Source of the DNA: Candidatus Heimdallarchaeota archaeon
Lineage (GTDB): Archaea; Asgardarchaeota; Heimdallarchaeia; Heimdallarchaeales; Heimdallarchaeaceae
DNA length: 32,000 nucleotides
Direction of reading: 5' to 3'
Assembly (NCBI GenBank): GCA_030668875.1
Contig: DAOVER010000006.1
Location: forward strand, 69,286-101,285
How positions within the stretch are numbered: position 1 is the stretch's first letter; each line of letters begins with the position of its first letter. Under the pieces are notes generated by a model. The model was not told the origin of the DNA. It did no database searches and saw only the letters and a list, made by a program, of their open reading frames with translations. Shown here in pieces: positions 1,801 to 27,629 of the stretch. The translations under genes were made by a program, and so were the position numbers.

Positions 1801-3804
1801 ATGCCCATGAGCAAATACGTAGAGACTGTTTCTTCTTCCATGCAGGATAAGGCAAAGATACGTAATGTAAGTATTGTCAGTCATGTTGATCACGGCAAAA
1901 CAACCTTGTCGGATCATCTTTTACAAGCAGGTGGGTTGATTTCACAAACAATGGCGGGGACTGCGAGAGCACTTGATTACCTTGATGAAGAGCAAAAACG
2001 AGGGATAACTATCAAGACGGCTAATATATCTTTAGTATACAAATATAACAATATCTCACATTTAATTAACTTAGTAGATACACCAGGTCATGTTGACTTT
2101 TCAGGAATGGTTTCACAAGCTTTGCGTTTAGTGGATGGTGCAATTATAGTAGTAGATGCCGTTGAGCAAATTATGGCTCAAACTGAATCAGTAATTAGGC
2201 AAGCAATGGGTGAATGTCTACGCCCGATACTATTCATAAATAAGATTGATCGGTTAATAAACGAACTCAAACTACCCAAAAGGGAGATAGAAGCTAGAAT
2301 TAACAACATAATTCAAATGGTTAATGAATTAATAACTCAATACACCCACTCTCAATTTAGAGAGAAGTGGAAGGTAAAATTTGATAATGGAACCGTAATA
2401 ATTGGGTCAGCATTAAATGGTTGGGCAATATCAGCATATTCCAAGAATGCTCCATCGTTTGATGAAATAATTAAACTACACTTGGAAAATAGTTCTAATG
2501 AACTGAAAATAAATTTTCCTATAACGAAATCAATTTTATCCTCCATCATAGATAACGTTCCTAATCCTAAAGAAGCCCAAAAAGACCGCTATAGGCATAT
2601 AACACAGTTCAGTGACCAGAAATCTGAAAAGGCACTAATAGAATGTGATGATAATGGTCCGACAATTTCATGTCTAGGGAAACTATTATACGAAGATAAT
2701 AGAGGTTTAATCTCTGTTGTTAGAATCTTCTCAGGAACAATAAAATCAGGTAGTGTTCTCTTGAATAGAAGGACAGGAGAATCTTCTAGAGTTCAACAAG
2801 TCTGTATCTATAAAGGTCAGTCTCTTGTAAAACTAGATTCGGTTGGAGCAGGTAATATTGCTGTTCTTATTGGGATGAAAAATGTCCAAATAGGAGATAC
2901 TATTATTGATAAGATAGATAAATTCCCAAATATTCTGTTTAATCAGATATCCTACCTTCAAGAATCGGTTATTTCTAGACGAGTGGAACCAGAGAAGGTA
3001 TCTGACATACCTAAATTGCAAAAGTTGCTTGATATATTGTCACTGATTAAACCAAATTTTCGTCATTCAACTGATGAAAATACAGGAGAGATGAAGATAT
3101 TTGGTATTGGAGAACTTCAACTTGAAATTATAATTGGTGAAATCGAAAAAAGTAGTATTAGGGTATATGTTTCAAATCCTGAAGTAACTCTTGTTGAGCA
3201 AATTGAAAAAGCAGTAATATTGACAAAGCAAGATCAACTTGGTCTATTACAAATCACTATTGAATGCAAACCAACAACTGACAGTGAAAAAGAATGCATA
3301 TATTCAGATTATAGGGATAATTGTCTAGTAGTTGAGGATAAAATTTGTGGGGAGGAATTATATGATTTACTAAAACCAGGTTTTCGGAACGCGATTCTTA
3401 AAGGACCTTTAAGAGGTTATTTGGTTAGAAAACTAACTTTGATTGTCAAGGAAATCAAAGAACTCAAACCAAATTCTATCAGATATGAAATAATGATACC
3501 CTTAGTAAGAAATGCTATTCATGAAGCTATTATTGAAGGTAATGTAGGTATTTACGAACCAATTTATTCCTTTTCAATCAATACACCTCTTCAGTATATG
3601 GGTTCTATCTTAGCTGTAGTTCAAAGATTTAACTGTGATATTTCTGATACAGAGCATTACGTTTCACGAACAATAATTAGTGGAGAAATAAGTGTAGAAT
3701 CATCACTTCAAATAGCAACTGAATTAAGAGGAGCTTCTGAAGGTTACGCTTTTTGGCAATTTGAATTTCAAGGATATAAGAAGAAAAAATCAAATAATAA
3801 GTAA
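1801..3804 (+). CDS. fusA: Elongation factor 2 family GTPase, divergent paralogue lacking the diphthamide His motif (aEF-2p-like)
   Basis: G1 SHVDHGKTT, G2 EEQKRGITIKT, G3 DTPGH, G4 NKID and a domain V-like C-terminus. 667 aa is shorter than canonical aEF-2; no HRG motif seen in domain IV. Confidence 0.9.
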   Translation: MPMSKYVETVSSSMQDKAKIRNVSIVSHVDHGKTTLSDHLLQAGGLISQTMAGTARALDYLDEEQKRGITIKTANISLVYKYNNISHLINLVDTPGHVDFSGMVSQALRLVDGAIIVVDAVEQIMAQTESVIRQAMGECLRPILFINKIDRLINELKLPKREIEARINNIIQMVNELITQYTHSQFREKWKVKFDNGTVIIGSALNGWAISAYSKNAPSFDEIIKLHLENSSNELKINFPITKSILSSIIDNVPNPKEAQKDRYRHITQFSDQKSEKALIECDDNGPTISCLGKLLYEDNRGLISVVRIFSGTIKSGSVLLNRRTGESSRVQQVCIYKGQSLVKLDSVGAGNIAVLIGMKNVQIGDTIIDKIDKFPNILFNQISYLQESVISRRVEPEKVSDIPKLQKLLDILSLIKPNFRHSTDENTGEMKIFGIGELQLEIIIGEIEKSSIRVYVSNPEVTLVEQIEKAVILTKQDQLGLLQITIECKPTTDSEKECIYSDYRDNCLVVEDKICGEELYDLLKPGFRNAILKGPLRGYLVRKLTLIVKEIKELKPNSIRYEIMIPLVRNAIHEAIIEGNVGIYEPIYSFSINTPLQYMGSILAVVQRFNCDISDTEHYVSRTIISGEISVESSLQIATELRGASEGYAFWQFEFQGYKKKKSNNK

Positions 3805-4047
3805 TTTTATATTTCTTACTTAAATTTAGTTAGAAAGCTCAACATTTAGAAATATTGAAATAAGCGCAAAATATAAATTACCAATATAATACGTTGAAAA
3901 TACGTAAAAAATCAATTGAAAAGTGTTTTTTTGGGATAGATTAATCACAAGATAATATGGGTGGCTCAGAACTCAAGATCCTCAACATCAAATTCAGTAA
4001 AGGGCTAGACTCGTCATTGCCAAATAAAAATAATATATCTTGCTTTT

Positions 4048-5361
4048 TTATTTTCCCATTTCAGCAATAATTCTTTCAGAAATACTTGAGCATTGTTCAA
4101 TTATTCTTTCTTTGTTCAATGTTTTATGCTTTCTATTCTCATAAACCATCTTACCATTGACGATAAGATCTGTAACATCTGAACTAGATGAGGAATATAT
4201 TATATTGGATAAGACATTATTTTGAGGCCAAGAGTGACTCCTTTCAAGAGAGAGAATGGTGAGATCGGCTACTGATTTATCAGAAATACCATTTGAGTTG
4301 ACACCTAGAGCCTTCATGCCGTTAACTGTACCTAATTGAAGTGCTTGTGAATTTTCTAGTACTTTAGGATCATTAAATTTGTATTTTTGAAGCATTGCCG
4401 CAGTAGATATTTCTTCAAGCATTCCAAGATCATTATTAGAGGCATTGCCATCTGTACCTACAGCTACATTAATCCCTAAATCAAGATAGGTGTGAATTGG
4501 TGCAATCCCACTAGTCATCTTAAGATTAGATTGTGGGTTATGTAAAACAGTAAAATCTGTTTCTTTCATAATCTTCCAATCTTTGTTTGAAGTATCTACA
4601 CAATGAGCAGCCAAGATTTTACTTTCTGTTAAACCAAGTTTATGTACATATTCAATGGGTGACATACCAAAGTTGTCTAGAGCCTCTTCTACTTCTCTTT
4701 TTGTTTCATTAAGATGAATATGGATAGGTAGAGAATTCTTGAGAGCTAAATCCTTTACTCTGTGTATATATTCCTCTGGAACCGTATATGGCGCATGTGG
4801 CCCTATACCAAAATTAACTAGTTTATTTTTATTCGAAAATTTATTGTTGAGTAGATTAGAAACATGTTTCCAAGTATTTTCAATACTGCCTGATTCCGGT
4901 GTATTATCAAAAACTGAGGGGCAAATTAATGCCCTTATTTTGGCTTCTTTCGTTGCTTTTTCGATAGATTCTGCGTAAAAGTACTGATCTATGAAACCTG
5001 AAGCTCCCGATTCAATCAATTCAAGACAACCCAAGAGAGTACCATAGTATGCATCCTCGGGAGTCATTTGATGTTCAAAAGGCCAAATATAATCATTTAA
5101 CCAAGTCAGTAATTTTTCATTATCGCAAATTCCCCTTAACAGTGTTTCAGGAATGTGAGTATGTGAATTTACTAAGGAAGGAATTACAATGTGATTTTTG
5201 CGTTCTAGTTTATCATGACCAGACACTAACTTCTTCACATCCTCTGCTTTTCCAACTGCAACTATCTCATTATTTTCAATAAGAATGCCACCGTGTTTTA
5301 TTACTTTATTACAGGTGGAACCCGATACAATAAACTTAGAATCAATAAATAGCTCACTCAT
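4048..5361 (-). CDS. mtaD: Amidohydrolase, MTA/SAH (5'-deoxyadenosine) deaminase family
   Basis: Metal-binding NSHTH, GPHAPY, HIHLNET, AAHCV, HNPQSNLK, GTDGNASNNDL motifs. Confidence 0.88.
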   Translation of the reverse strand: MSELFIDSKFIVSGSTCNKVIKHGGILIENNEIVAVGKAEDVKKLVSGHDKLERKNHIVIPSLVNSHTHIPETLLRGICDNEKLLTWLNDYIWPFEHQMTPEDAYYGTLLGCLELIESGASGFIDQYFYAESIEKATKEAKIRALICPSVFDNTPESGSIENTWKHVSNLLNNKFSNKNKLVNFGIGPHAPYTVPEEYIHRVKDLALKNSLPIHIHLNETKREVEEALDNFGMSPIEYVHKLGLTESKILAAHCVDTSNKDWKIMKETDFTVLHNPQSNLKMTSGIAPIHTYLDLGINVAVGTDGNASNNDLGMLEEISTAAMLQKYKFNDPKVLENSQALQLGTVNGMKALGVNSNGISDKSVADLTILSLERSHSWPQNNVLSNIIYSSSSSDVTDLIVNGKMVYENRKHKTLNKERIIEQCSSISERIIAEMGK

Positions 5362-9990: not shown

Positions 9991-10151
9991 TGTGTATCAC
10001 TCATTTAGTTATACTTAGAAATAGGAAGAAGATACTAAAACAATAAGGAAATTAAATGACACAAAAACAGTAGAATCATTTACTACTATTTAGTTCATTT
10101 CAAAATGGAGAGAAATTGTTTGTTTCAAGCGCCGAAACGATTGAATATACA

Positions 10152-10187
10152 ATCTTACCACATAAATATTTTTCTCTGTGGTAAGAT
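10152..10187. repeat. Palindrome ATCTTACCACA-N14-TGTGGTAAGAT (copy 1)
   Basis: Perfect 11-bp arms with 14-nt AT-rich spacer. Confidence 0.85.
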
Positions 10188-10232
10188 ATTTCTTCTATAT
10201 CATTTTTCCACCTGATCCTTAATATCCTTTCA

Positions 10233-10274
10233 ATTATCTTACCACATTCTTTATTATTTGTGTGGTAAGATAAT
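10233..10274. repeat. Palindrome ATTATCTTACCACA-N14-TGTGGTAAGATAAT (copy 2)
   Basis: Perfect 14-bp arms with 14-nt spacer; same core as copy 1. Confidence 0.85.
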
Positions 10275-10300
10275 AATAAAAAAAAGTTTTTCGCTTGAAA

Positions 10301-10756
10301 TTATCTTAGCAGATCAGGGTGGATTTCCAATATCTTTAATTCACCATAGATTTCAAGAAGTTTGGTGGTTACGGAATACAATCGTTGAGAGACGTTACCT
10401 TTTCTATGTAACATGTTCTCGTCTGCTAATCTTGCAAGATAAGTACTGACTGTACTCATCTTTATTCCTTCTTTAAACACTATCTCATACAACTCACAGA
10501 CTTCATTAGAGGTAAACCAATCACTCTCAGGATAATGGTTCCTAATGATACTAGCAACTCTTTCAATAATTGAAGCTCCAAGGAGTTCGGTAATAGAGTT
10601 CATCTTAATTGGTTCGCGTTCTCCTTCAGTAGCAACGGCTTCTTTTCCAGTAACTAAAGCAAGTGTTGTCTTTAAACTCTCGGTGTCTCCTGAAGGTATC
10701 CTTATGATCGTCCCATCAGGCAGTTTAATTGTAATTTCTTTAGGCATTAGACTCAC
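10301..10756 (-). CDS. Winged-helix domain protein (151 aa)
   Basis: C-terminal WFTSNEVCELYE...MSTVSTYLARLADENMLHRKG...RLY fits a wHTH. Confidence 0.75.
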   Translation of the reverse strand: MSLMPKEITIKLPDGTIIRIPSGDTESLKTTLALVTGKEAVATEGEREPIKMNSITELLGASIIERVASIIRNHYPESDWFTSNEVCELYEIVFKEGIKMSTVSTYLARLADENMLHRKGNVSQRLYSVTTKLLEIYGELKILEIHPDLLR

Positions 10757-10879
10757 TTTGTTACTTGTTATGTTTACACAGTAATTTGTATTTAAAGGTA
10801 GATATCACGTTTGTCTAGGTATAGGCCAATAAAAACATACGTATTAACAAAAAATTGTTCCGACTAAAATTTAGACAGA

Positions 10880-10900
10880 CCCCACCAGTTCCATTGGAGA
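10880..10900 (-). promoter_or_regulatory. Third ORB-like element with G-string
   Basis: Minus strand TCTCCAATGGAACTGGTGGGG; 12 bp identical to the mini-ORB at 7967-7981. Confidence 0.6.
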
Positions 10901-11111
10901 GTATTATCTATATAAATAACTGTTTTCTGTATTAAATATAGAAAGACTTATATAATCATCATTTTTCTTTTATTAGGAGGCTATGTACAATTAAAATATA
11001 TTATACTTTTTTCCATAATATGTACAATAAATATCACTTCCACAAGAAACAATGGGGAGTCTGTATACTTGTCAGTTTTTATTTAACTATACAAATGTTT
11101 AAAATCTTTTA

Positions 11112-11411
11112 ATGACCGGAAATCTCGATACTATGGTTACTAGAGTACGTTTTTGTGCTAAGTGTGGACGTCCTGTCCAGGGTAAGGTTAATTATTGCGA
11201 AGACTGCACAGCTGATATTACAGCGGGTACCCAAGATAGATGCTCGATCTGTGGTAAAAGTAAACTTATGTCCCCATTGACATACAATGCTAGAATCAAG
11301 AAAGTCTATTGTAAAGAATGTCTTAATGTCTTTATTGCAGGTCTTAGAGCTAAGGAGATACCTCAAAGAGAAATTAATAAAATGTTAACCAAGGATTTTG
11401 TACCACTTTAA
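11112..11411 (+). CDS. Double zinc-ribbon protein (99 aa)
   Basis: Four CxxC pairs: CAKC, CEDC, CSIC, CKEC. Confidence 0.75.
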   Translation: MTGNLDTMVTRVRFCAKCGRPVQGKVNYCEDCTADITAGTQDRCSICGKSKLMSPLTYNARIKKVYCKECLNVFIAGLRAKEIPQREINKMLTKDFVPL

Positions 11412-11664
11412 TGGTCATTAAAACCTCAGAATCTATCACTATTTAATTTCCTTTTCTATTCTTCTTTTCCCTTTACAATAAGAAACCAATAGATTAGATC
11501 AAATCACTTCAGTTGCTCTATGAAAAAAGATGATTAGATAAGAACGGTAAACCAAAAGAAGAAGAAATCAGGAAACTTGGAATTAATTAATTTAAAAGAA
11601 TATATAAATTAAAATAAACGTGAACACAATTAATTCTTCAGAACAGTAAATAGGAGTAAATAGG

Positions 11665-13382
11665 TTATGTCAGTCTCACATATCCTTCTCTTAATGAATA
11701 AATCTCTCCATTACTTCGAAGTTGTTCTATAACTTTTTCAACAAAGTATTCTTCGATATTATTCTCTTTGGCAATCTCTTTGATTTTCCTTAAAGGCACT
11801 ATGTCGACACATCCTTTTCGAGATTCCTCTTTTATGATTAAATAGATTAACTCAAATTTTGCCTTCCAATTCTCCCCCCCTAATCCTAACAGCTGTGATT
11901 CTATTGTTTTTTTATATCCTATTTTCTTTAACGCATCAATTACAAACCATCTTACCTTCTCATCCTCATCTTTCAGACCTTAAATAAGAATTTTCATTAC
12001 CAGTTTACTTCCTTTGTTCCCTAATATTCTGGCAGCTTTTACTTGTAACCAGCTACTCTCATCTTTCAATATTTCAATTAGTTGTTCATCTGTTTTTCCA
12101 TCCCCTTTGTCCCCAAGCACAATTGCTACTCCTTTCCTTACAATCTTATTTTCTTCTTTTAGTGCATCAATGAGAATGAGTATTACTTGTTTGTCTTTTA
12201 TTAATTCTAATACCTCTACTGCTGCTCTCCTTACTTCCATATTGTCATCTTTTAGAGCTTTAATGAACAGACTAACACCTCTAACTCCGATGAATTTGGC
12301 TATTCTATATGGCGTGTCTCTTGCTCCTCTATTTGCAATCTCGTTTTTATCTTTTAACACTTCAAAAAGCAGATCACAAACTCGTTCATTTCCTTCTCTC
12401 CAACCTATATCACTTAAGGAATACTTAGCTGCATTTCTCACATTCTCAAATGAATCTTTAAGAGCTTCAATCAATGGTTCTGCTCCTAATAAGTCTCCTA
12501 TCTCCCCTAACGCTTTTGCAGCAACATGCCTTATGCTTTCATCGTCATCTTCTAGTACTTTTAAAAGTGGTTCAATAACATTTGTACCGCCAATTTTTCC
12601 TAATGCAATTACAATCTCCTTTTTTACCCGCAGGTACTGCTCATCTTTTAGTACTTCAATGAGTGGTTTTACAGCCTTTTCATGTCTTATATGTCCTAAT
12701 GCTAACACTGCATAACTTCTTATCCTTACATCTTCATCTTTCAGTGCTTCTATTAGTTGAGGGATTGCTCTTTCTCCTAAATCCAAATCTTTTATATAAG
12801 AAATTTCCATATTCTGATAATAATAATTTGCTTGCTTTCCAATCAATTCTAATGTTTTTGCTGCTTTAACCCTTACTTCCTGTGTTACGTCTTTGAGTGA
12901 TTTTCTGATATATGGTAACGCTTGTAAATCGCTAATATTCCCTAGCGCTTCTATTGCAATTAGTCTAATAACCTTATCTTGCGCTTCTAATGCATCAAAT
13001 AATGCATTCATCACACGTTGATCGTTGAATTTTTTTAATACTGTAGAAGCATTTTCCCTTACCATCTCATCTTCGTCTCCTAACATATTAAATAAGGGTT
13101 CTATAATTTGAGAACCACCAATATTACCCAATGATTCTACTACAGCTCTTCTTACATCCGAATCTTTATTTTTTAGCATTTCGATGAGCACAGAAAGCGA
13201 TTTTTTTTCAAGCCTTCTCCTTCACCCTCCCAGTATTTATCTTGAAATTCCTCTTCCAGTTTGATGAATTCAGGATCTTTAGATTCTTGTGACAATTTGG
13301 ATAGATTGAACTTTTGTTCCTTCTCTTTTCTAACTTCACTCTTCTTTTGAGTATCAGGTTCAAGCTGATCTTTCCAATCCAT
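11665..13382 (-). pseudogene. HEAT (PBS-lyase-like) repeat protein with C-terminal winged helix; disrupted by an A8 frameshift and an in-frame TAA
   Basis: ORF 13173-13382 joins 11980-13191 across the A8 run at 13201-13208. After TAA (11980-11982) the frame continues 104 codons (GLKDEDEKVRWFVIDALKKIG...GEIYSLREGYVRLT) to TAA at 11665-11667. Many LKDED..VR..A..ALG.IG repeats. Confidence 0.8.
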
Positions 13383-13430
13383 TACCTAGGAAAGAACAAT
13401 TGAATATAAAAATACAATCTTATGAATACA

Positions 13431-13500
13431 TTATTTTCACTTAAAGACCTAGTGGACTATGTTACCATTTTTTACAAACCTTTTCTACTTACATAAATTG
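13431..13500. repeat. Left direct repeat of cassette 2 (diverged copy of the ABC-permease 3' end)
   Basis: Aligns with 15661-15729; 24-bp identical core AAGACCTAGTGGACTATGTTACCA. Confidence 0.85.
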
Positions 13501-13671
13501 GCTTTAGATCTTTATTTTACGTTTTTTATTACATGAATCATACTTGTTTTTCTTATTCTGAGTTGTTTGTGTAAGAATTCCCTTCAAATACAGTTTTTCT
13601 GTCAACTTCTTTCCTTGTGTCTTTTAGTAGTTTGTTAATACTCTAAGTATGAATTTAACAAGTGATGAATC

Positions 13672-13740
13672 ATGATAAAACAAAAATATGATTCTGAACC
13701 AGGTGATGATGATATAGGACCTCCTTTATGGTGGCCATAA
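13672..13740 (+). CDS. Small peptide C, MIKQKYDSEPGDDDIGPPLWWP (22 aa), convergent with TPR-2
   Basis: Manual translation; AAGTGATG SD-like motif; TTTTAGTA at 13622-13629 (42 nt upstream); TGTCA at 13600-13604. Confidence 0.88.
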   Translation: MIKQKYDSEPGDDDIGPPLWWP

Positions 13741-13776
13741 TTAAATATCATAATTTCTTCTTTTTGTAAGTACTTA

Positions 13777-15351
13777 TTACTTAGATTGAAGCACATCCGT
13801 TCGTTGCACATCTAAATAGTCTAACAATTTATTTTCTAATCTGCTGAAACCATAATTCCTGCATTTTTTGATGGCCATGTATTGGAGAGCAGGTCCTAGA
13901 GGATCACCATTCTTGAAAGCACCAACCTGGATAAAAGCTTCCATGAAAACACGCAATTCGAGAACTTCTATCCGATGAAGTTGATTCTGATATTTTATTA
14001 AGATAGGATAAATCTCTAAATATCTTTTTTCAATAAATAGCTCATTTACAAGGCATAAATCAGAAAAAGCCTTTTCAACAAATGTAAAATCTTTAAGTTT
14101 AGGTTTTTTACTGAGTGCATCTTTGAATAATTCTATCCTTTTTTCTTTATTTGTTTGAGTTTTTGTTAGGACATATTCTATGATGTGTTGAATTCGATAT
14201 ATACTTGAATTGTTTGATTCTTTTAACTTTACAAGCTGTTTATAGTTTAACTCTGCATTCAATATAAATTCGCTTAAAAGGATAGAATCACTGTAATTAT
14301 TTTCAATTCCTTCATATATCAGTTTTATAAGAAGTTGAACTTTTTTTGAACTAAAACCATATAGTCGTGAATAAACATAGAATTTGACTAAATTTAGCGT
14401 ATGAGGAACTTGTTTTCTGCTATAAGGATCCAAATTTTTTCTTATAAAATCATCCTCAATTAATTCTTCAATCTTCTTAATATGTTCAATAGACTGCTCC
14501 AGTTTACCCTGTAATGCTTGAACAATAGTTAAATGAGATAACAGTCTAACATAGTAATAGGAATAATAACCACTCAGTTGTAGTTTTGAATTCATTAACA
14601 GATAGGATTCATTAAACAGATATTCTGATTGTCTCAAATTATGAATCAATAGTTGACCAACCCCAGCAAGATAATAAGCTATAGCTTGAACATCTTCTGG
14701 TAACTGTGTAAAGAGATATTTGTTGCTGAAGATCTGTTGAGAGATCTTTATTGCTTTTTTCTTATTTTGTGTTTGTTGATAGATTATAATTAAAATGCCT
14801 AAAGATTGTATCAAACTTCTATAATATCCTTCTTTAAAGAAATAATTTGAGCACTCTTCTAAAATTGAACCACTTTTGATATTATGATCTTCTAACCAAT
14901 ATTCAATTGCTAATGAGTAGTTACAGATATAATGGGCATATTTTTCGGGATTAGGGTTCTTCTTAATATGATTTATTGATTCCTCAAGCGCTTTCCTGCT
15001 TTTTTCTTTGTTACCTTGTATTTTTTCAATGTACCATTCAATATTATAAGAAAGAGCTAACCCCTCAGAATACTCAATCTCAATAGATAATTCTTTCATT
15101 TCTTGAACTATTTTAAATATTTCAGGAATTTTATCGAATAAGTGTTCAATCTGAGATATTTTGATTTCATAAGTTTTTACTAAAGATTTTTTATCATTAA
15201 GTAATCTGCATTTTTCTATTATTTTTTCTAGTAACCTAATATTATTCATGTCATATTTACTATTGGAGATTATAACCCTTAATTTATCAAGAAAGCTCTC
15301 CATATCTTTTCTTGATATAATTTTATCTAATTTTGTAATCAGGTTTTCCAT
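13777..15351 (-). CDS. TPR-like helical repeat protein 2 (intact, about 524 aa)
   Basis: Paralogue sharing the IEVLELRVFMEAFIQVGAFKNGDPLGPALQYMAIKKC C-terminal block; helical-repeat pattern throughout. ATG 15351 with upstream GGTGAT is preferred over TTG 15366. Confidence 0.85.
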   Translation of the reverse strand: MENLITKLDKIISRKDMESFLDKLRVIISNSKYDMNNIRLLEKIIEKCRLLNDKKSLVKTYEIKISQIEHLFDKIPEIFKIVQEMKELSIEIEYSEGLALSYNIEWYIEKIQGNKEKSRKALEESINHIKKNPNPEKYAHYICNYSLAIEYWLEDHNIKSGSILEECSNYFFKEGYYRSLIQSLGILIIIYQQTQNKKKAIKISQQIFSNKYLFTQLPEDVQAIAYYLAGVGQLLIHNLRQSEYLFNESYLLMNSKLQLSGYYSYYYVRLLSHLTIVQALQGKLEQSIEHIKKIEELIEDDFIRKNLDPYSRKQVPHTLNLVKFYVYSRLYGFSSKKVQLLIKLIYEGIENNYSDSILLSEFILNAELNYKQLVKLKESNNSSIYRIQHIIEYVLTKTQTNKEKRIELFKDALSKKPKLKDFTFVEKAFSDLCLVNELFIEKRYLEIYPILIKYQNQLHRIEVLELRVFMEAFIQVGAFKNGDPLGPALQYMAIKKCRNYGFSRLENKLLDYLDVQRTDVLQSK

Positions 15352-15482
15352 GGAATTAATCACCAAAGGTTAAAGAAACTTATATTTTAAACACTATAAA
15401 CAATTCTAAAAAAATTGCATTTAAATTGCATGTTTTACTCTAATTATATAATATTTTTAAAATAAAATAAAGAAAGAAACCC

Positions 15483-15548
15483 TTAAGGTCTCCATAAGGG
15501 TGGTCCTATGTCATCATCACCTGGTTCAGGATCATATATTTGTTTCAT
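15483..15548 (-). CDS. Small peptide D, MKQIYDPEPGDDDIGPPLWRP (21 aa), upstream of TPR-2
   Basis: Manual translation; AAGTGATG SD-like motif; TTTAAATA TATA box at 15590-15597 (41 nt upstream); TGTCA at 15614-15618. Confidence 0.88.
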   Translation of the reverse strand: MKQIYDPEPGDDDIGPPLWRP

Positions 15549-15660
15549 ATTGCATCACTTAAGTTGTTTACATTATTGTATAAGGAGAATATTTAAACCT
15601 CAAAAGAAAGAAATGACACTAAAAAAATAACGAGTTTAGATTGTTGAAATTTCAATAAAA

Positions 15661-15729
15661 TTATTTTCCTTTAAGACCTAGTGGACTATGTTACCACTTT
15701 TTCTAACCCTTTTCTACTTGCATAGATTG
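15661..15729. repeat. Right direct repeat of cassette 2 (overlaps the permease stop codon)
   Basis: Aligns with 13431-13500. Confidence 0.85.
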
Positions 15730-17497
15730 AGGTTGTTGTTGCTATTAGTATGAATCCTACTATTACTGATATAATTATTACTGGAAAGTTCGATAATACT
15801 GCATAAGGTACAAGAAAATATCTACCTATTATTGCTCCGAAATAGCTTCCTAAAGCTATACCTGGGATGATTTGCAGAAGTATTGCCGTCACTACTGATC
15901 CGTATATGCTTTTCTTTTTTATTCCTAGCCTATACAGTAGTTCGAAATCCTTTCTATACGTTAGGAAATACAGGAACGAATATACTATTATTTGGAATGC
16001 AAATATCGCGAACATTATTCCTCCTAACACCTTAAACATAGTTGTAAAACTGTTATAATTCGCTAGATTTTGCTCGATCATTTTTTCCATGCTTATTATT
16101 TGATATTCATATCTTTCAAGAATCTCGCTTATTTTATCGTAAACTGTAGTACTTATATTTTCTAACATTAGTAAATTAGAACCATTAGCCACACCCTCTG
16201 CTATTAGTTTATTCAGTGGGCAATAAACACTGTATCCTGCTGCGAAACTATCTATCACTACACCACTAATTTGGTAATCATTTGAATCATCGTACAGTTT
16301 TAATTTTTGTAGAGTGCTATTATCAAAAAACTTAGCTTCTAAAGTATCACCTATTAAAACTTCATTTTTTGAAGGATTTGGGTTGTCCCCTGCTATATAT
16401 TCATTTTCGTTGAAATTAATATTTTCATATCCTATTATGGTAGCGTATACTTTACGATCTTGACCTATTGGTATGTACACATTATTCACTATTTCAAGCG
16501 CTGACATCTCTTTTATTTGCAGTTTTGAAATGAAATACTTCTGATACGTTACGTTTATCCCTCCTAATTCAGTTAATAGTTGAGTTGATATTGAAGTATT
16601 ATAGAAATGTTCTAGGTCATTATCTAATCCTGTGTACGAGCTATTACTATATTCCTGTACTGGTAAGCTCTGATTAAAGAAATCAATTGCATCTGGCTCT
16701 CCTATAACGTACGAGTAATCTTGAAATCTACTATTCAAATTTACATAATGTGTTTCAGCAACTGTTAGTGGTCCCAAAACGAATGAAATTGAGGAGAAAA
16801 TAAGAAAGAAGCTAAATAGAAAGCTAGACAGTACTTTTCCTGATCTTAGGAAATTCTTTACACCTAGCTTTACGGATGAAGTAAACTTGTTTATTAATGC
16901 ATCAAATTCAAAGATGCTTTTGTAGTTACTTAAACTGCTGGAAGATACTTCAAAGTCTTTTTCACTGATGAATTTTAATATTGTATAATGGGCTTTAATA
17001 TAAGAAGAAACCAATATTACCAGATTCCCTCCTAGTATTGGGAGAAACCCTACATAGCTAAAGATGCTCCCAAACCCAAAAGAAACACTTGTTATAACTA
17101 AAACAATTAATCCTAGAACCATTCCTAGAATCAACATTATAGTTGCTGTCAAAATTTGATTGAAGATAAAATAGCTGTATATCCACCTACTTTTTCCTCC
17201 TACATTTTTCATAACAGCGATGTCATCTTTTTGACTTTGAAATTTAAGCTCTATTGATCTGATAGTGACAATTACTCCAATTATTATACAAACCACAATG
17301 AAAATTACTGTAATCAACGTGTAGGAACTGAAGAAAACATAATCCAGTGACATTTGGAGATTAGCTCTCATTAGTGAGAATAAACCTATACTGATTGTAA
17401 TAGCTGAGTAGGTTATTATTTGGCTAATAAAGGTAAATAGTGAGCCTAGGAACGATCTTTTAAAATCAATCCATGCAAATTTCAGTTGTCCTATCAT
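15686..17497 (-). CDS. ABC transporter permease, FtsX/MacB/LolE family
   Basis: Multiple TM segments, DIAVMKNVGG and LLYRLGIKK FtsX-type motifs, large extracytoplasmic loop, adjacent ATPase. Confidence 0.85.
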   Translation of the reverse strand: MIGQLKFAWIDFKRSFLGSLFTFISQIITYSAITISIGLFSLMRANLQMSLDYVFFSSYTLITVIFIVVCIIIGVIVTIRSIELKFQSQKDDIAVMKNVGGKSRWIYSYFIFNQILTATIMLILGMVLGLIVLVITSVSFGFGSIFSYVGFLPILGGNLVILVSSYIKAHYTILKFISEKDFEVSSSSLSNYKSIFEFDALINKFTSSVKLGVKNFLRSGKVLSSFLFSFFLIFSSISFVLGPLTVAETHYVNLNSRFQDYSYVIGEPDAIDFFNQSLPVQEYSNSSYTGLDNDLEHFYNTSISTQLLTELGGINVTYQKYFISKLQIKEMSALEIVNNVYIPIGQDRKVYATIIGYENINFNENEYIAGDNPNPSKNEVLIGDTLEAKFFDNSTLQKLKLYDDSNDYQISGVVIDSFAAGYSVYCPLNKLIAEGVANGSNLLMLENISTTVYDKISEILERYEYQIISMEKMIEQNLANYNSFTTMFKVLGGIMFAIFAFQIIVYSFLYFLTYRKDFELLYRLGIKKKSIYGSVVTAILLQIIPGIALGSYFGAIIGRYFLVPYAVLSNFPVIIISVIVGFILIATTTSIYASRKGLEKVVT

Positions 17498-17516
17498 ATC
17501 TATCCCACTAACGTTA

Positions 17517-18365
17517 CTAGTTTTCCTGTTCTTCTTCTATGAAGTCTAGCTCTTCTTCTGTCATGTTCATTAATTCTTCCTCTGTATAATCATCAATAGG
17601 TTCAGTTTCTTCGTTTTGCATCTCCATAGAACTGATAGATCTATACTTAGTATCTTGTTTCTTTTTTCTTTCAGGATGTTCTTCTTCAAGTGTTACAGAT
17701 TGTGCTCCTACACGATATATTGTCGATGCTATTTCCTTCATTTTGGGGTCATGTGATGATACAATAATAGTTATGTCTGTTGTTGTAAATATTTCTTTAA
17801 TTAATTCGCACATCATATCAGCTGATTCACGATCTAAATTACCTGTGGGTTCGTCTAATATTAGGATGTAAGGGTCATTAGACAATGCTCTTGCTATTGC
17901 CACACGTTTCTTTTCTCCCCCACTTAACTGTGCTGGAAAACTATCTTTCCTTTTATCTATCTTCAATCTCTCTAATAATTCGTCTATCTTTTTTTCTCTT
18001 TCTTCCTCCTCTCCATCAAAACCACATAATTCCTGGAAGAGGATTATATTTTCTTTTACAGTAAGTGTAGAGACCAAATTATTTTCTTGAAAAACAATTC
18101 CAAGATAATTTGAGCGAAAATCAGCTTTTTCTCTATCTTCTATTAGATCTATGTACAATCCAGCTACTTCTATTTCCCCCTCATTTGGGTGCAAAAGCCC
18201 AGTTAATATGTTTAATAGAGTTGTTTTTCCACTTCCACTTGGACCATACAATAATACCAATTCATTTCTTTCTACCTCTAAATTTACTTCTTTAAGTATA
18301 ACTAATTCCTCCCAGAATAATTGAAATTTCTTTGATATATTGGCAAAACGCACGATTTGTTCCAT
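17517..18365 (-). CDS. ABC transporter ATP-binding protein (LolD/MacB-like) with acidic C-terminal tail
   Basis: GPSGSGKTT, LSGGEKKRVAIARAL, ILILDEPTGNLD, H-loop SHD. ATG 18365 is preferred over 18380. Confidence 0.93.
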   Translation of the reverse strand: MEQIVRFANISKKFQLFWEELVILKEVNLEVERNELVLLYGPSGSGKTTLLNILTGLLHPNEGEIEVAGLYIDLIEDREKADFRSNYLGIVFQENNLVSTLTVKENIILFQELCGFDGEEEEREKKIDELLERLKIDKRKDSFPAQLSGGEKKRVAIARALSNDPYILILDEPTGNLDRESADMMCELIKEIFTTTDITIIVSSHDPKMKEIASTIYRVGAQSVTLEEEHPERKKKQDTKYRSISSMEMQNEETEPIDDYTEEELMNMTEEELDFIEEEQEN

Positions 18366-18448
18366 CTTAATCCCACACACAATTAAGTGGTAATAAGTAT
18401 TTATCTGTTTTATTATTTCTCTGTTCTGGGTAATAGAGTATAATAGTA

Positions 18449-18494
18449 AAAATATAGGTAGCGAAGTTTCGAAATGAGATTATCATTCAAGGGT
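18449..18494. repeat. Left direct repeat of cassette 3
   Basis: 46 bp matching 20433-20478 with 2 mismatches. Confidence 0.9.
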
Positions 18495-18563
18495 TCTATA
18501 CCGACGAAGAAATTAAGAGACATCTAAAAGACTTACATGAACATGATTACCCTCTTTAGAGCT

Positions 18564-20156
18564 CTATACTGTTCTTCTTATATCCTTATGCTGCAATTGT
18601 AAGTACTTTAGTAATGTATTTTCTAATCTAGAGAATCCGTAGAGTCTGCATTTTTTAATTGCCATGTATTGTAAAGCTGGCCCAAGAGGATCTCCGCTAT
18701 TATAAGCTCCTACTTGAATGAAAGCCTCCATAAAGATGCGGATCTCTAGAACCTCAATTCGTTTGAGTCTACTCTCATATTGCTTGAGGAGAGGAGCGAT
18801 TTCTGCGTAACGCTTAAGAGAAAACAGTTGCTGTGCTATAAGGAGATCTGTATAGGCCTGTTCTATGAATGTAGTCTTATCTGTCTTTACTCGTTTTTCT
18901 AAGATAGAAATAAAGTTCAGATTTTTCTGTTCCTGACTAATTTCCGTTTCTAATTTTTGCTTTTCAAGCATGAATTCGATTAGATGTTTTACTCGATTAA
19001 TGCTGAAATTATCGATTGCTAATAATGATTGAAGTTTAGCAGAATCAAGATTGGAATTAAGGATGAACTCACTAAAGATCATAAAATCGCTATAATGAAC
19101 CTTACAATCTTCATTTATTTCTTCTATTAATTCTTGGTGTTCTTGAGAATTGTAACTGCTTAAACGTGATAAATTATAGAATTTTATTAAACTGTGAGTA
19201 TGAGTAATTTGCTTCTTGGTGTTTTCATCCAAATTTTTCTTGATAAATTCTGTTTGGAGAAGAGTTTCTGCTTCTTTAACCATATTTGAAGCTTGCTCAT
19301 TTTTCCCTTGTAAACCTCTAACGGTAGCAATATAAGAAAGTAAAACAAGATAATATGCAAAATAGATGCTGTTTTTGTATACTGGTTTGAGAATACTGTA
19401 AGCTTCATTAAAATATGATTCAGCTATTGCTAGATTAGCATCTAACATATACCCCAAACCTGTGAAATAGTAAATGATTCCTTTAAAATCGCTAGATAGT
19501 TTTTCGAAAAGAGTTCTGTTAGCAAGGATTCTATTACTTATGTTTAAGGCTTTCTTGCTCTCATGAGTACGACTGTAAATAATGCTCAAGAGACCAAAAG
19601 TTTGAGCCAAACTTCGGTAAAACCCTTCTTGAATGAAATGTTCAACACAGTCCTCTAAAAGCACCGCACTTTCCGCACTATGATTTTGCAACCAGATTTC
19701 TATCGCATATGAATATTTACACGTGAATATTGTATATGTATCTGACACATTTCTTTCGTTAATAAATTCAAGAGCAAGTTGTATTTCTCTACTACTACTT
19801 TTTGTGTTTCCTTGAAGTCTCTCAAGATGCCATTTAATCTGATGTACAAGTGCTAGTCCTTCGGAAAATTCTATTTTTTGGGATAATTCATACATTTTCG
19901 TTAATATTCTCTTAATTTTCACAATATTACTGGCGTGGTTATATAACTGTCTTATTTGTAAATCGTATAAACGAATAAGTGTTTTTGTGTCTTTTATTTT
20001 ACTGCTTTGTTCTATTGCATTTTCAATGTACTGACAGATTAATGGTTCGCTTTTATTAGAAGCAATGACTCTTAGCTTTTTTACTAGATCAAATAACTTC
20101 TCTCCACTAGTGATATTATTAACTTTACGAAAATTATTACCTTTCTCCAATTTCAT
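18564..20156 (-). CDS. TPR-like helical repeat protein 3 (intact, 530 aa)
   Basis: Paralogue with the same C-terminal block (FMEAFIQVGAYNSGDPLGPALQYMAIKKC). TTTATATA box about 24 nt before the ATG. Confidence 0.87.
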   Translation of the reverse strand: MKLEKGNNFRKVNNITSGEKLFDLVKKLRVIASNKSEPLICQYIENAIEQSSKIKDTKTLIRLYDLQIRQLYNHASNIVKIKRILTKMYELSQKIEFSEGLALVHQIKWHLERLQGNTKSSSREIQLALEFINERNVSDTYTIFTCKYSYAIEIWLQNHSAESAVLLEDCVEHFIQEGFYRSLAQTFGLLSIIYSRTHESKKALNISNRILANRTLFEKLSSDFKGIIYYFTGLGYMLDANLAIAESYFNEAYSILKPVYKNSIYFAYYLVLLSYIATVRGLQGKNEQASNMVKEAETLLQTEFIKKNLDENTKKQITHTHSLIKFYNLSRLSSYNSQEHQELIEEINEDCKVHYSDFMIFSEFILNSNLDSAKLQSLLAIDNFSINRVKHLIEFMLEKQKLETEISQEQKNLNFISILEKRVKTDKTTFIEQAYTDLLIAQQLFSLKRYAEIAPLLKQYESRLKRIEVLEIRIFMEAFIQVGAYNSGDPLGPALQYMAIKKCRLYGFSRLENTLLKYLQLQHKDIRRTV

Positions 20157-20218
20157 TCACATAATGATTATACGTAAAATGGTATATAAAGGGAGATATA
20201 ATTCTCCCCAGATAGAAA

Positions 20219-20287
20219 TCAGTGTGGGGACCAAAGTGGGGGAAGTATACTTTCGTCTCCGTCTTCCGGATCATATTTTTGTTTCAT
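20219..20287 (-). CDS. Small peptide E, MKQKYDPEDGDESILPPLWSPH (22 aa), upstream of TPR-3
   Basis: Manual translation; GAGTGATG SD-like motif; TTTTAGTA at 20330-20337 (42 nt upstream); TGTCA at 20355-20359. Confidence 0.88.
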   Translation of the reverse strand: MKQKYDPEDGDESILPPLWSPH

Positions 20288-20432
20288 TGTTCATCACTCT
20301 TTTGTGTTATACTTAGAAGAAGAAAAAACTACTAAAAGACAACAAGAAAGAAACTGACAAAGAGACTGTTTTACTATTAAAAATATCAATAATACAGGTA
20401 TTTTCTAAAAAGGATTAAGAATGCCATAAGAT

Positions 20433-20478
20433 AAAATATGGGTAGCGAAGTTTCGAGATGAGATTATCATTCAAGGGT
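20433..20478. repeat. Right direct repeat of cassette 3
   Basis: Matches 18449-18494; overlaps an 11-bp inverted repeat (20443-20453 / 20509-20519). Confidence 0.9.
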
Positions 20479-20581
20479 CTACACCAATAAGTCCAATCCC
20501 ACACGAGAAAACTTCGCTAGATAGACATGATTGTTGTACATTATATCCTTTTTTGTTAGCGTTACTGATGATCGTTTTCTA

Positions 20582-27384: not shown

Positions 27385-27478
27385 TATATCAACAAGGTTT
27401 ATGCTTTTTTATATGCATAAACAGTTATAAAGATTGTTCAGTTCATGGAACAAATAAAAAAAAGCAAGTTGAAAATAA

Positions 27479-27512
27479 TCTTACCACATAAAATGTATAT
27501 TGCGTGGTAAGA
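27479..27512. repeat. Palindrome TCTTACCACA-N14-CGTGGTAAGA (copy 3)
   Basis: Same arms (1 mismatch) and same 14-nt spacing as the copies at 10152 and 10233. Confidence 0.8.
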
Positions 27513-27629
27513 CAAACAAAAACAAGAAATCGACCTGAGGAATTTTGGAGATAAGAGGCGTATCTACAAAATATATTTTCATGACAAAAATAAAAACCTC
27601 CAAAGAACATAGGAACCCTCCCTTGAGTT

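Follow-up and report, generated by a model that had tools for sequence, protein, structure and literature searches.

How does a small group of genes come to lie between two copies of the end of a neighbouring gene, with no enzyme for DNA integration beside it? The question is raised by a locus in a 32-kb stretch of DNA from a Candidatus Heimdallarchaeota archaeon (hereafter the window), which is the final 32 kb of contig C95 in a metagenome-assembled genome (MAG) of 3.23 Mb (99 contigs, 33.8% G+C, 92% complete). The window holds four paralogous cassettes, each consisting of a gene for a tetratricopeptide repeat (TPR) protein of ~530 amino acids (aa) and one or two genes for acidic Pro/Trp peptides of 21-22 aa. 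The second of them, cassette 2, is bracketed by a direct repeat of the 3′ end of an FtsX-type ABC permease gene. With a rough probability of 55%, we favour a homology-anchored insertion, either Campbell-type or by C-terminal displacement, followed by ongoing swapping of cassettes.

The gene that anchors the repeat (15686-17497, minus strand, stop TAG at 15686-15688) encodes a permease of 603 aa, is present in a single copy in the genome, and forms an operon with an ABC ATPase gene of the MacB/LolD/FtsE type (17517-18380, minus). The right copy of the repeat (R; 15654-15729, minus) is the live end of this gene: it comprises the last 13 codons, the TAG stop and 32 nucleotides (nt) downstream, and reads ...TTTSIYASRKGLEKVVT / ...SIYASRKGLEKVVT. 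The left copy (L; 13425-13500, minus) is a displaced and decayed permease end that reads IYVSRKGL*KMVT*. An earlier note on this DNA had given the same reading of the left copy, and we reproduced it exactly. The copies match at 63 of 76 positions (83%) without gaps, or at 88.7% over 71 nt with one gap, and they contain the 24-nt identical core that had been noticed before (13444-13467 and 15673-15696). When each copy was compared by blastn with the whole 3.23-Mb assembly, its only match was the other copy (E 1.9e-13), the next best being 14-17 nt long, which confirms a direct repeat of the permease 3′ end with just two copies. Independent assemblies of the source samples (Logan contigs) span each copy at 100% identity, so the layout is no obvious misassembly.

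The insert of ~2.2 kb between L and R consists of three genes only. Next to R lies pepD (15483-15548, minus), a gene for an acidic Pro/Trp peptide of 21 aa, upstream of TPR2 (13777-15366, minus), whose product is an all-helical TPR solenoid of 529 aa that has no further domain. Next to L lies the pepC unit (13587-13740, plus), inverted relative to pepD and made up of its own upstream region (13587-13671) and a 22-aa peptide gene (13672-13740); this inverted unit wholly accounts for the sequence at 13501-13776. A 75-nt inverted repeat in cassette 2 is made up of its two peptide genes; in other cassettes the peptide genes point the same way. Domain searches of the window detected no recombinase domain between or beside the repeats, in agreement with the earlier observation that neither an integrase nor a transposase accompanies the three genes.

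The site exists in several states in congeners (G002, G016, G020, G021, G023 and others, G000 being the window's own genome) and in a metagenome contig from JGI (L123). In G021, whose permease is 88% identical at the amino acid level, the site is empty: window positions 10000-11418 and 15696-18414 have counterparts that follow directly on one another, and the permease gene and ORF99, a convergent Cys-rich open reading frame (ORF) of 99 aa (11112-11411, plus), meet at their stops. About 11 more distant congeners are also empty, with the permease followed by ORF99 and a MarR-like gene and 10-54 nt between the stops (0-54 nt over all empty-site genomes). The earlier note had predicted empty-site alleles in which the permease end adjoins a HEAT-repeat gene. 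Such alleles do exist, with ORF99 as the neighbour; G002, G016 and G021 lack the HEAT gene, and in the window it is a degraded gene (region 11412-13413, minus) between ORF99 and L.

In G002 the site is occupied and reads ORF99, 14 nt, an intact-looking L (...SRKGLEKEII*), an orthologue of cassette 2, and R (...EKVIT*). Its TPR protein is 74% identical to that of the window (80% for the gene), its L and R share only 33 nt, at 94% identity, and the TPR segment flanked by its two inverted peptide genes has the opposite orientation to that in the window, with breakpoints inside these genes. G016 carries another cassette, in which R, its tail and the pepD region are as in the window and are followed by a second peptide gene and a TPR protein only 48% identical; L is missing, and a fragment of a peptide gene is joined to the ORF99 stop at an ATGATC microhomology. 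Identities of EF-2 and an amidohydrolase put G002 well outside the window, G016 and G021 (77-81% versus 92-93%), which suggests that G002 is the outgroup of this four-species clade.

Alignment of all copies reveals which parts of the repeat are constant. The permease tail after the residues EK (VVT*, VIT*, VIV* or VII*) and ~16 nt past the stop are common to R of the window, G002, G016 and L123, that is, to all cassette-bearing genomes, as is the pepD region adjoining the tail; the R-type tail and the post-stop ~16 nt are missing at the empty site of G021. Likewise, the window, G002 and L123 have the same inner junction between L and the cassette. At its outer end L varies: the tail is R-type in the window, KEII* in G002, and VISDH* or VISDN* in L123, in minor strains and in strains from cold seeps. 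The inner part of the window's L is orthologous to L of G002, and its R-type outer 43 nt, which include the 24-nt core, lie where other strains have another tail. The core and these outer 43 nt are strain-specific and are probably the product of later gene conversion or crossover, not part of the original repeat.

The pattern recurs INDEPENDENTLY, in gene-end repeats of G020 and G023 and in a hairpin repeat at cassette 3 of the window. The permease of G020 is 53% identical to that of the window and has a different end (...GGRRGLKSII*); the last 22 codons of this gene recur as a 67-nt copy (...GGRRRLKSVL*, 86.6%) on the far side of a peptide gene and TPR gene pair of another type. In G023 the duplicated segment belongs to a MarR-like gene, a 148-nt copy of whose end (80%) lies beyond a peptide gene, a TPR gene and a HEAT-like ORF. 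These two marR-end copies are at positions 5120-5267 and 8685-8831 of contig L046, the bracketed HEAT-like ORF is 321 aa long, and the collinear repeat runs on past the marR end to the next peptide gene.

Cassette 3 of the window is bracketed by a repeat of 46-54 nt that is half of a ~77-nt hairpin (fold -28.9 kcal/mol, z-score -2.98): the left copy (18449-18502) is half of the element and the right copy (20433-20530, minus) holds the complete hairpin (20443-20519), between orf276 and the ABC operon. G002, which is without cassette 3, has a single copy of the hairpin. In G021 and G016 cassette 3 is present and the left hairpin copy is absent. Rfam has no family that matches either the permease-end repeat or this hairpin. 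Flanking direct repeats were also sought at the HEAT region, at cassettes 1 and 4 and at the cassettes of contig C9, and none were found besides array spacers; in a survey of 48 further TPR loci, the gene-end cases were those of G002, G020 and G023, all else being repeated array spacers.

The divergence between paired copies is informative about their origin. In a codon-by-codon comparison of L and R, the marR ends of G023 have 19 synonymous and 11 non-synonymous differences (proportions of synonymous and non-synonymous sites that differ, pS 0.74 and pN 0.11), the permease ends of G020 have 5.5 and 6.5, and those of G002 have 5 and 3. Pooled, these three pairs give pS 0.57 and pN 0.11, with 30 synonymous differences out of 50. 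Chance would predict 22% (p 5e-9), and ~33% would be predicted if the repeat had arisen in situ and one copy had evolved neutrally ever since (p 1e-4). Because the divergence is mostly synonymous, the copies look like diverged functional alleles and not like an in-situ duplicate. The position of the stop in L adds to this picture: it is at the partner's position in G002 and G020 and two codons later in the first L-type piece of L123 (L1), and in G023 the stop is lost and the frame reads on for ~10 codons. Furthermore, the gene-attached copy in G023 is 93-94% identical to marR of close relatives, and for the displaced copy the figure is only ~80%, whichever sampled marR it is compared with. These comparisons indicate that most of the divergence would have arisen while both sequences were functional gene ends, one of which would have come with foreign DNA. 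This agrees with the earlier suggestion of a donor from a related strain, since the copies behave as alleles of different lineages. The window's own pair, in which L is decaying, has three synonymous and three non-synonymous differences, one of them a stop.

These observations have mechanistic implications. We propose that cassette 2 (pepD, TPR2 and the inverted pepC) was placed at the permease 3′ end by homologous recombination of the host. The incoming DNA would have carried its own diverged permease end, either as a circularised cassette that entered by a single Campbell-type crossover or as a linear piece anchored by homology. The crossover would join the permease body to a working end (R), followed by the cassette, and would push the second end copy (L) to the far side, where, untranslated, it would decay. 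The R-type outer 43 nt of the window's L could stem from a crossover at the far end of the homology or from a later conversion of L by R. We infer the form of the donor DNA (circular or linear), the joining by host recombination rather than by a dedicated enzyme, and the origin of the R-type outer L in either of these two events. A single crossover with a circle makes four predictions: R should be resident in its proximal part, with the donor tail and then the cassette; L should start at the point of circle closure, which should be equal in all recipients; L should end in the resident tail and downstream DNA, varying with the background; and the divergence between the copies should be of the allelic kind. 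Each of these is observed, and a Campbell-type single crossover fits. The earlier proposal that a cassette inserted at a gene 3′ end and restored its target therefore stands in that the permease is intact and an older end is displaced; the att-type integration that it also offered is disfavoured, as set out below.

Several points weigh against this account. Local duplication is at work here, since there are tandem arrays of peptide and TPR genes elsewhere and L123 has a tandem duplicate. The synonymous bias comes mainly from the marR pair of G023; the permease-end pairs alone are short, with 26 differences and an estimated p of ~0.04 against the in-situ model. The inverted layout of G002 comes from a single low-coverage MAG contig. 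A tree of the locus genes gave no resolved order for the window, G016, G021 and G002, so the empty site of G021 could be ancestral or a secondary loss. The assembly is 92% complete, and an integrase could lie in the missing part. Finally, no circle junction, excision product or episomal copy was seen in the assembled Logan contigs of the source runs.

The strongest competitor, which we nevertheless consider rather unlikely, is an in-situ duplication, in which slippage, template switching or segmental tandem duplication copied 33-150 bp of a gene end and L has decayed since. Tandem duplication clearly operates in this group, as seen in the arrays of peptide and TPR genes on C9 and in G004, G003 and G008, in the tandem peptide units of G016, and in L123, where a 95-nt tandem duplicate (82%) of the unit formed by the permease-end core and the cassette junction occupies positions 2835-2928 and 2938-3032 of the reverse complement. 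The extension of the G023 repeat block to the next peptide gene and the differences within the window's own pair point the same way. Against it stand the excess of synonymous differences over the in-situ expectation; the form of the L tails, which are whole alternative endings with a stop mostly near the same position, not scattered mutations; and the displaced copy of G023, which is no nearer to its partner than to marR of distant congeners. In addition, no second cassette and no remnant of the ABC genes lies past L in G002 or in the window. A tandem duplication of the whole locus with later decay, which the earlier note had set against its own reading, is not supported: TPR2 and TPR3 share 44% protein identity, compared with 83-94% for the repeat copies, G002 has cassette 2 without cassette 3, and there is no ATPase or permease remnant between TPR2 and L.

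We give still less credence to site-specific integration, in which a tyrosine or serine recombinase acting in trans would use the permease end as attB and the copy on the element as attP. Integrase-borne elements and proviruses of archaea and bacteria target and restore gene 3′ ends, classically those of tRNA genes. The layout here mimics theirs, with a direct repeat of a gene 3′ end around the insert, a functional target and one copy in the empty site. It differs in that no integrase lies in or next to the cassette, the insert is 2.2 kb and the repeat is inconstant in length and sequence. A search of the genome (again, 92% complete, which leaves room for this explanation) with PF00589 gave no hit, Xer-type proteins included, and all control genomes responded; the same was true of Cas1, for which the controls also responded. 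A trans-acting enzyme had been suggested earlier, and the genome does encode five serine recombinases (resolvase-type), at least three of which lie beside TnpB-like genes as in IS607; the genome has 32 TnpB-like hits. The duplicated segments are 76 nt in the window, 33 nt in G002, 67 nt in G020, 148 nt at marR of G023 and 46-54 nt at the cassette 3 hairpin. They come from the local end of two genes and from one hairpin and have no common core. With the gene, the length and the sequence all varying, a fixed att site is disfavoured. Nor does the locus have the features of a DNA transposon: there is no transposase, and the duplications are long and variable in length, unlike a short target duplication of fixed length.

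The idea that the repeat has a function, for instance as a terminator or regulator site kept by selection upstream of each peptide gene, or else is a chance match, has in its favour that each copy lies 100-250 nt upstream of one peptide gene, but it is essentially refuted by coding-frame homology through 13 permease codons and by the empty-site alleles, as well as by the match statistics (E 2e-13, two genome copies only), the opposite orientation of the copies relative to the two peptide genes, and the lack of the repeat at the other peptide genes of the window and of C9.

The earlier note had also asked for a junction of the excised circle, and none was unambiguous among the assembled contigs of the source runs; two exact-pattern scans of JGI metagenome contigs, with the L junction and with the 24-nt core, returned nothing. 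Some candidate joints in these contigs had other explanations. Joints that go back from 15734 to 13515, and one that skips from 13413 to 15696, had been considered as circle and empty-site joints; strains with a more R-like L explain them, as the sequence of L123 confirms. The X4 joint from 11410 to 13369, taken at first for a strain without the HEAT gene, was withdrawn when L123 showed such strains to have a different, intact allele of 640 aa in which HEAT repeats are followed by a winged helix. Another X4 joint, from 18492 to 20491 (depth 5.1, side 27), is what would be expected of an empty site of cassette 3, possibly in another species, and was not used as evidence of excision; coverage gaps in X5 and X6 were likewise set aside. 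A putative third and older permease-end remnant beside ORF99 (11412-11480) was dropped, as the score of its best local alignment to L of G002 was reached by 41 of 500 shuffles. A single displaced tip was detected, and no long array; the two L-type pieces of L123 are the local tandem duplicate described above.

Several features of this locus show that recombination is at work in it. The ABC operon of the window is a mosaic: over the first 1.5 kb it is nearer to G002 (85-90%) than to G016 or G021, and from 1.5 to 2.1 kb it is nearer to G016 (90-92%, versus 73-80% for G002). A comparison of window positions 15686-18380 with contigs L013, L014 and L015 showed the operon to be fast-evolving and mosaic across four close species; within this clade permease identity is 86-90%, and it falls to ~46-53% with other congeners, compared with 60-85% for neighbouring genes. 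A recent exchange concerns the body of TPR2. The TPR2 gene of L123 is 98.3% identical in nucleotides to that of the window; a tract of ~99% identity at 13979-15478 (minus) has ~13 mismatches and rises to 99.7% at 14079-14678, beside a permease gene and an ATPase gene that are 84-87% and 79% identical, respectively. On one side the tract stops within the conserved 3′ module of the TPR gene, on the other at pepD; these are conserved parts of the cassette, which indicates that the core of TPR2 was swapped recently by crossovers there.

The HEAT gene next to L has a history of its own. Its degraded form in the window (11665-13382, minus) has a frameshift at a run of eight A and an in-frame TAA, and it runs into a 55-codon copy of the C-terminal winged helix of MCM (~11665-11835). 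This copy is ~83% identical in nucleotides to the intein-bearing MCM gene of the genome and 86% identical to that of G010 (pS 0.51, pN 0.11). In L123 the diverged allele, the intact 640-aa ORF mentioned above, is followed by further HEAT ORFs that open with the same 45-nt segment. The positions that belong to this observation are 11665-13382 (minus) in the window, C13:12122-15979 in G000 and 5122-7044 in L123.

The cassettes are hosted by a backbone that is conserved in the genus and runs through genes for pyrophosphatase, PEPCK, orf176, orf276, the ABC ATPase, the FtsX-type permease, the convergent ORF99 and the MarR-like protein, continuing after the latter with orf115, orf104, Cdc6 and the amidohydrolase. 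Cdc6/Orc1, aEF-2 and ribosomal protein S10 are encoded in the window, a tRNA search of the window found none, and a scan for consensus promoters and terminators gave a result at chance level. Between the EF-2 and amidohydrolase genes, positions 3963-4021 (minus) match the Pyrococcus-type C/D box small RNA family RF00095 at 41.3 bits, against a gathering threshold of 45 bits (E 1.7e-5). A hairpin of 40-50 nt with arms ATCTTACCACA / TGTGGTAAGAT occurs in three copies in the window (10148-10283 and 27474-27525), of which two form a tandem pair in the interval from the MarR-like gene to cassette 1 and the third lies directly downstream of TPR4; contig variants from cold-seep runs show inversions and deletions at the sites of these hairpins.

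What the cassette carries is distinctive. TPR2 matches no family in Pfam, NCBIfam or PADLOC. An AlphaFold2 model (mean pLDDT 88.7) is an all-helical solenoid whose structural matches are generic TPR proteins only, with NprR at rank 44. Relatives of the TPR2 family were found only in Heimdallarchaeota MAGs, AB_125 among them. TPR1 and TPR2 have an identical block of 134 nt in common, and the closest paralogue of TPR2 in the genome (C9:47826-49414, 61% amino acid identity) is broken into three reading frames; the peptide gene that goes with it (C9:47596-47658) is 90% identical to pepD. Toxin and defence families sought in the cargo of TPR protein and micropeptides gave no match. In tandem arrays of peptide and TPR genes in several congeners, a conserved element of ~45 nt precedes the peptide genes (L054 124-190, L052 8100-8155, L058 2667-2732, L060 1-60 and L061 858-960); it contains CTCGGGGTTC and TTGGAGG and ends in a TTGTCA box, and only a degenerate version of the CTCGGGGTTC/TTGGAGG element lies upstream of pepD in the window.

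This cargo, considered apart from its mode of entry, recalls the RRNPP-type pairs of peptide and TPR receptor in Firmicutes, such as Rap-Phr, NprR-NprX and PlcR-PapR. As in those systems, a short peptide gene adjoins a gene for an all-helical TPR protein, and there are many diverged paralogous pairs per genome. However, TPR2 has neither a helix-turn-helix nor an enzymatic domain, the peptides are without a signal sequence, and the structural matches are generic.

The closest parallels to the entry of the cassette are bacterial. In rhs loci and orphan rhs/cdiA-CT modules, the gene body is kept, the acquired DNA brings short 3′ homology and new downstream genes, and the old end moves downstream; the proposed mechanism is homologous recombination through circular intermediates, with no dedicated integrase (Jackson et al. 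2009, BMC Genomics 10:584, PMC2935791). The locus described here is alike in that the anchor gene is left with a functional end, another copy of this end is found on the far side of the cassette, and the two ends look like diverged alleles. It differs in its anchors, which are an ABC permease and, in G023, a MarR-like gene and not a polymorphic toxin, and in its host, an Asgard archaeon. The displaced tip is 13-49 codons long and carries no alternative domain, the swapped tip amounts to 3-5 residues, the cargo is a pair of peptide and TPR protein where rhs loci have a toxin tip and an immunity gene, and only one displaced tip was detected, not a long array.

In Vibrio cholerae, the displacement of modules of type VI secretion system (T6SS) effector and immunity genes has been ascribed to illegitimate recombination facilitated by homology (Kirchberger et al. 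2017, Sci Rep 7:45133, PMC5361080). There too, modules enter beside a conserved upstream anchor, older material is shifted downstream, no integrase is involved and the locus is a mosaic, with whole modules also swapped by ordinary double crossover. Vibrio retains orphan immunity genes, whereas the remnant here is a short gene end, and because the same inner junction occurs in three lineages, a circle fits better than repeated illegitimate joins.

The homology-anchored insertion that we favour is not new in kind as a mechanism, and its circular intermediate is something we infer; the setting, in Asgard archaea with an unusual cargo, is new. In Heimdall-group Asgard archaea, the micropeptide and TPR modules are more than a fixed set of paralogues: they are cassettes that are gained, lost, inverted and exchanged between diverged lineages. 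A TPR gene that is ~99% identical inside ABC genes that have diverged by 15-20% speaks for recent gene flow between Asgard lineages. The scar of a displaced gene end resembles those of bacterial rhs, contact-dependent inhibition (CDI) and T6SS loci, whose evolution is shaped by conflict or recognition between strains; this pattern is indirect evidence that the modules are under diversifying selection, and it narrows their possible roles. As a conjecture that we regard as improbable, the peptide and TPR modules of Heimdallarchaeaceae might constitute a pherotype-like recognition system under frequency-dependent selection, whose cassettes would spread between lineages as small circles through host recombination alone and would use the ends of conserved neighbouring genes as landing pads, above all that of the permease, a candidate peptide exporter whose tail would be swapped together with the cassette. 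If this were true, these modules would be an archaeal counterpart, so far undescribed, of polymorphic toxin or pherotype loci.

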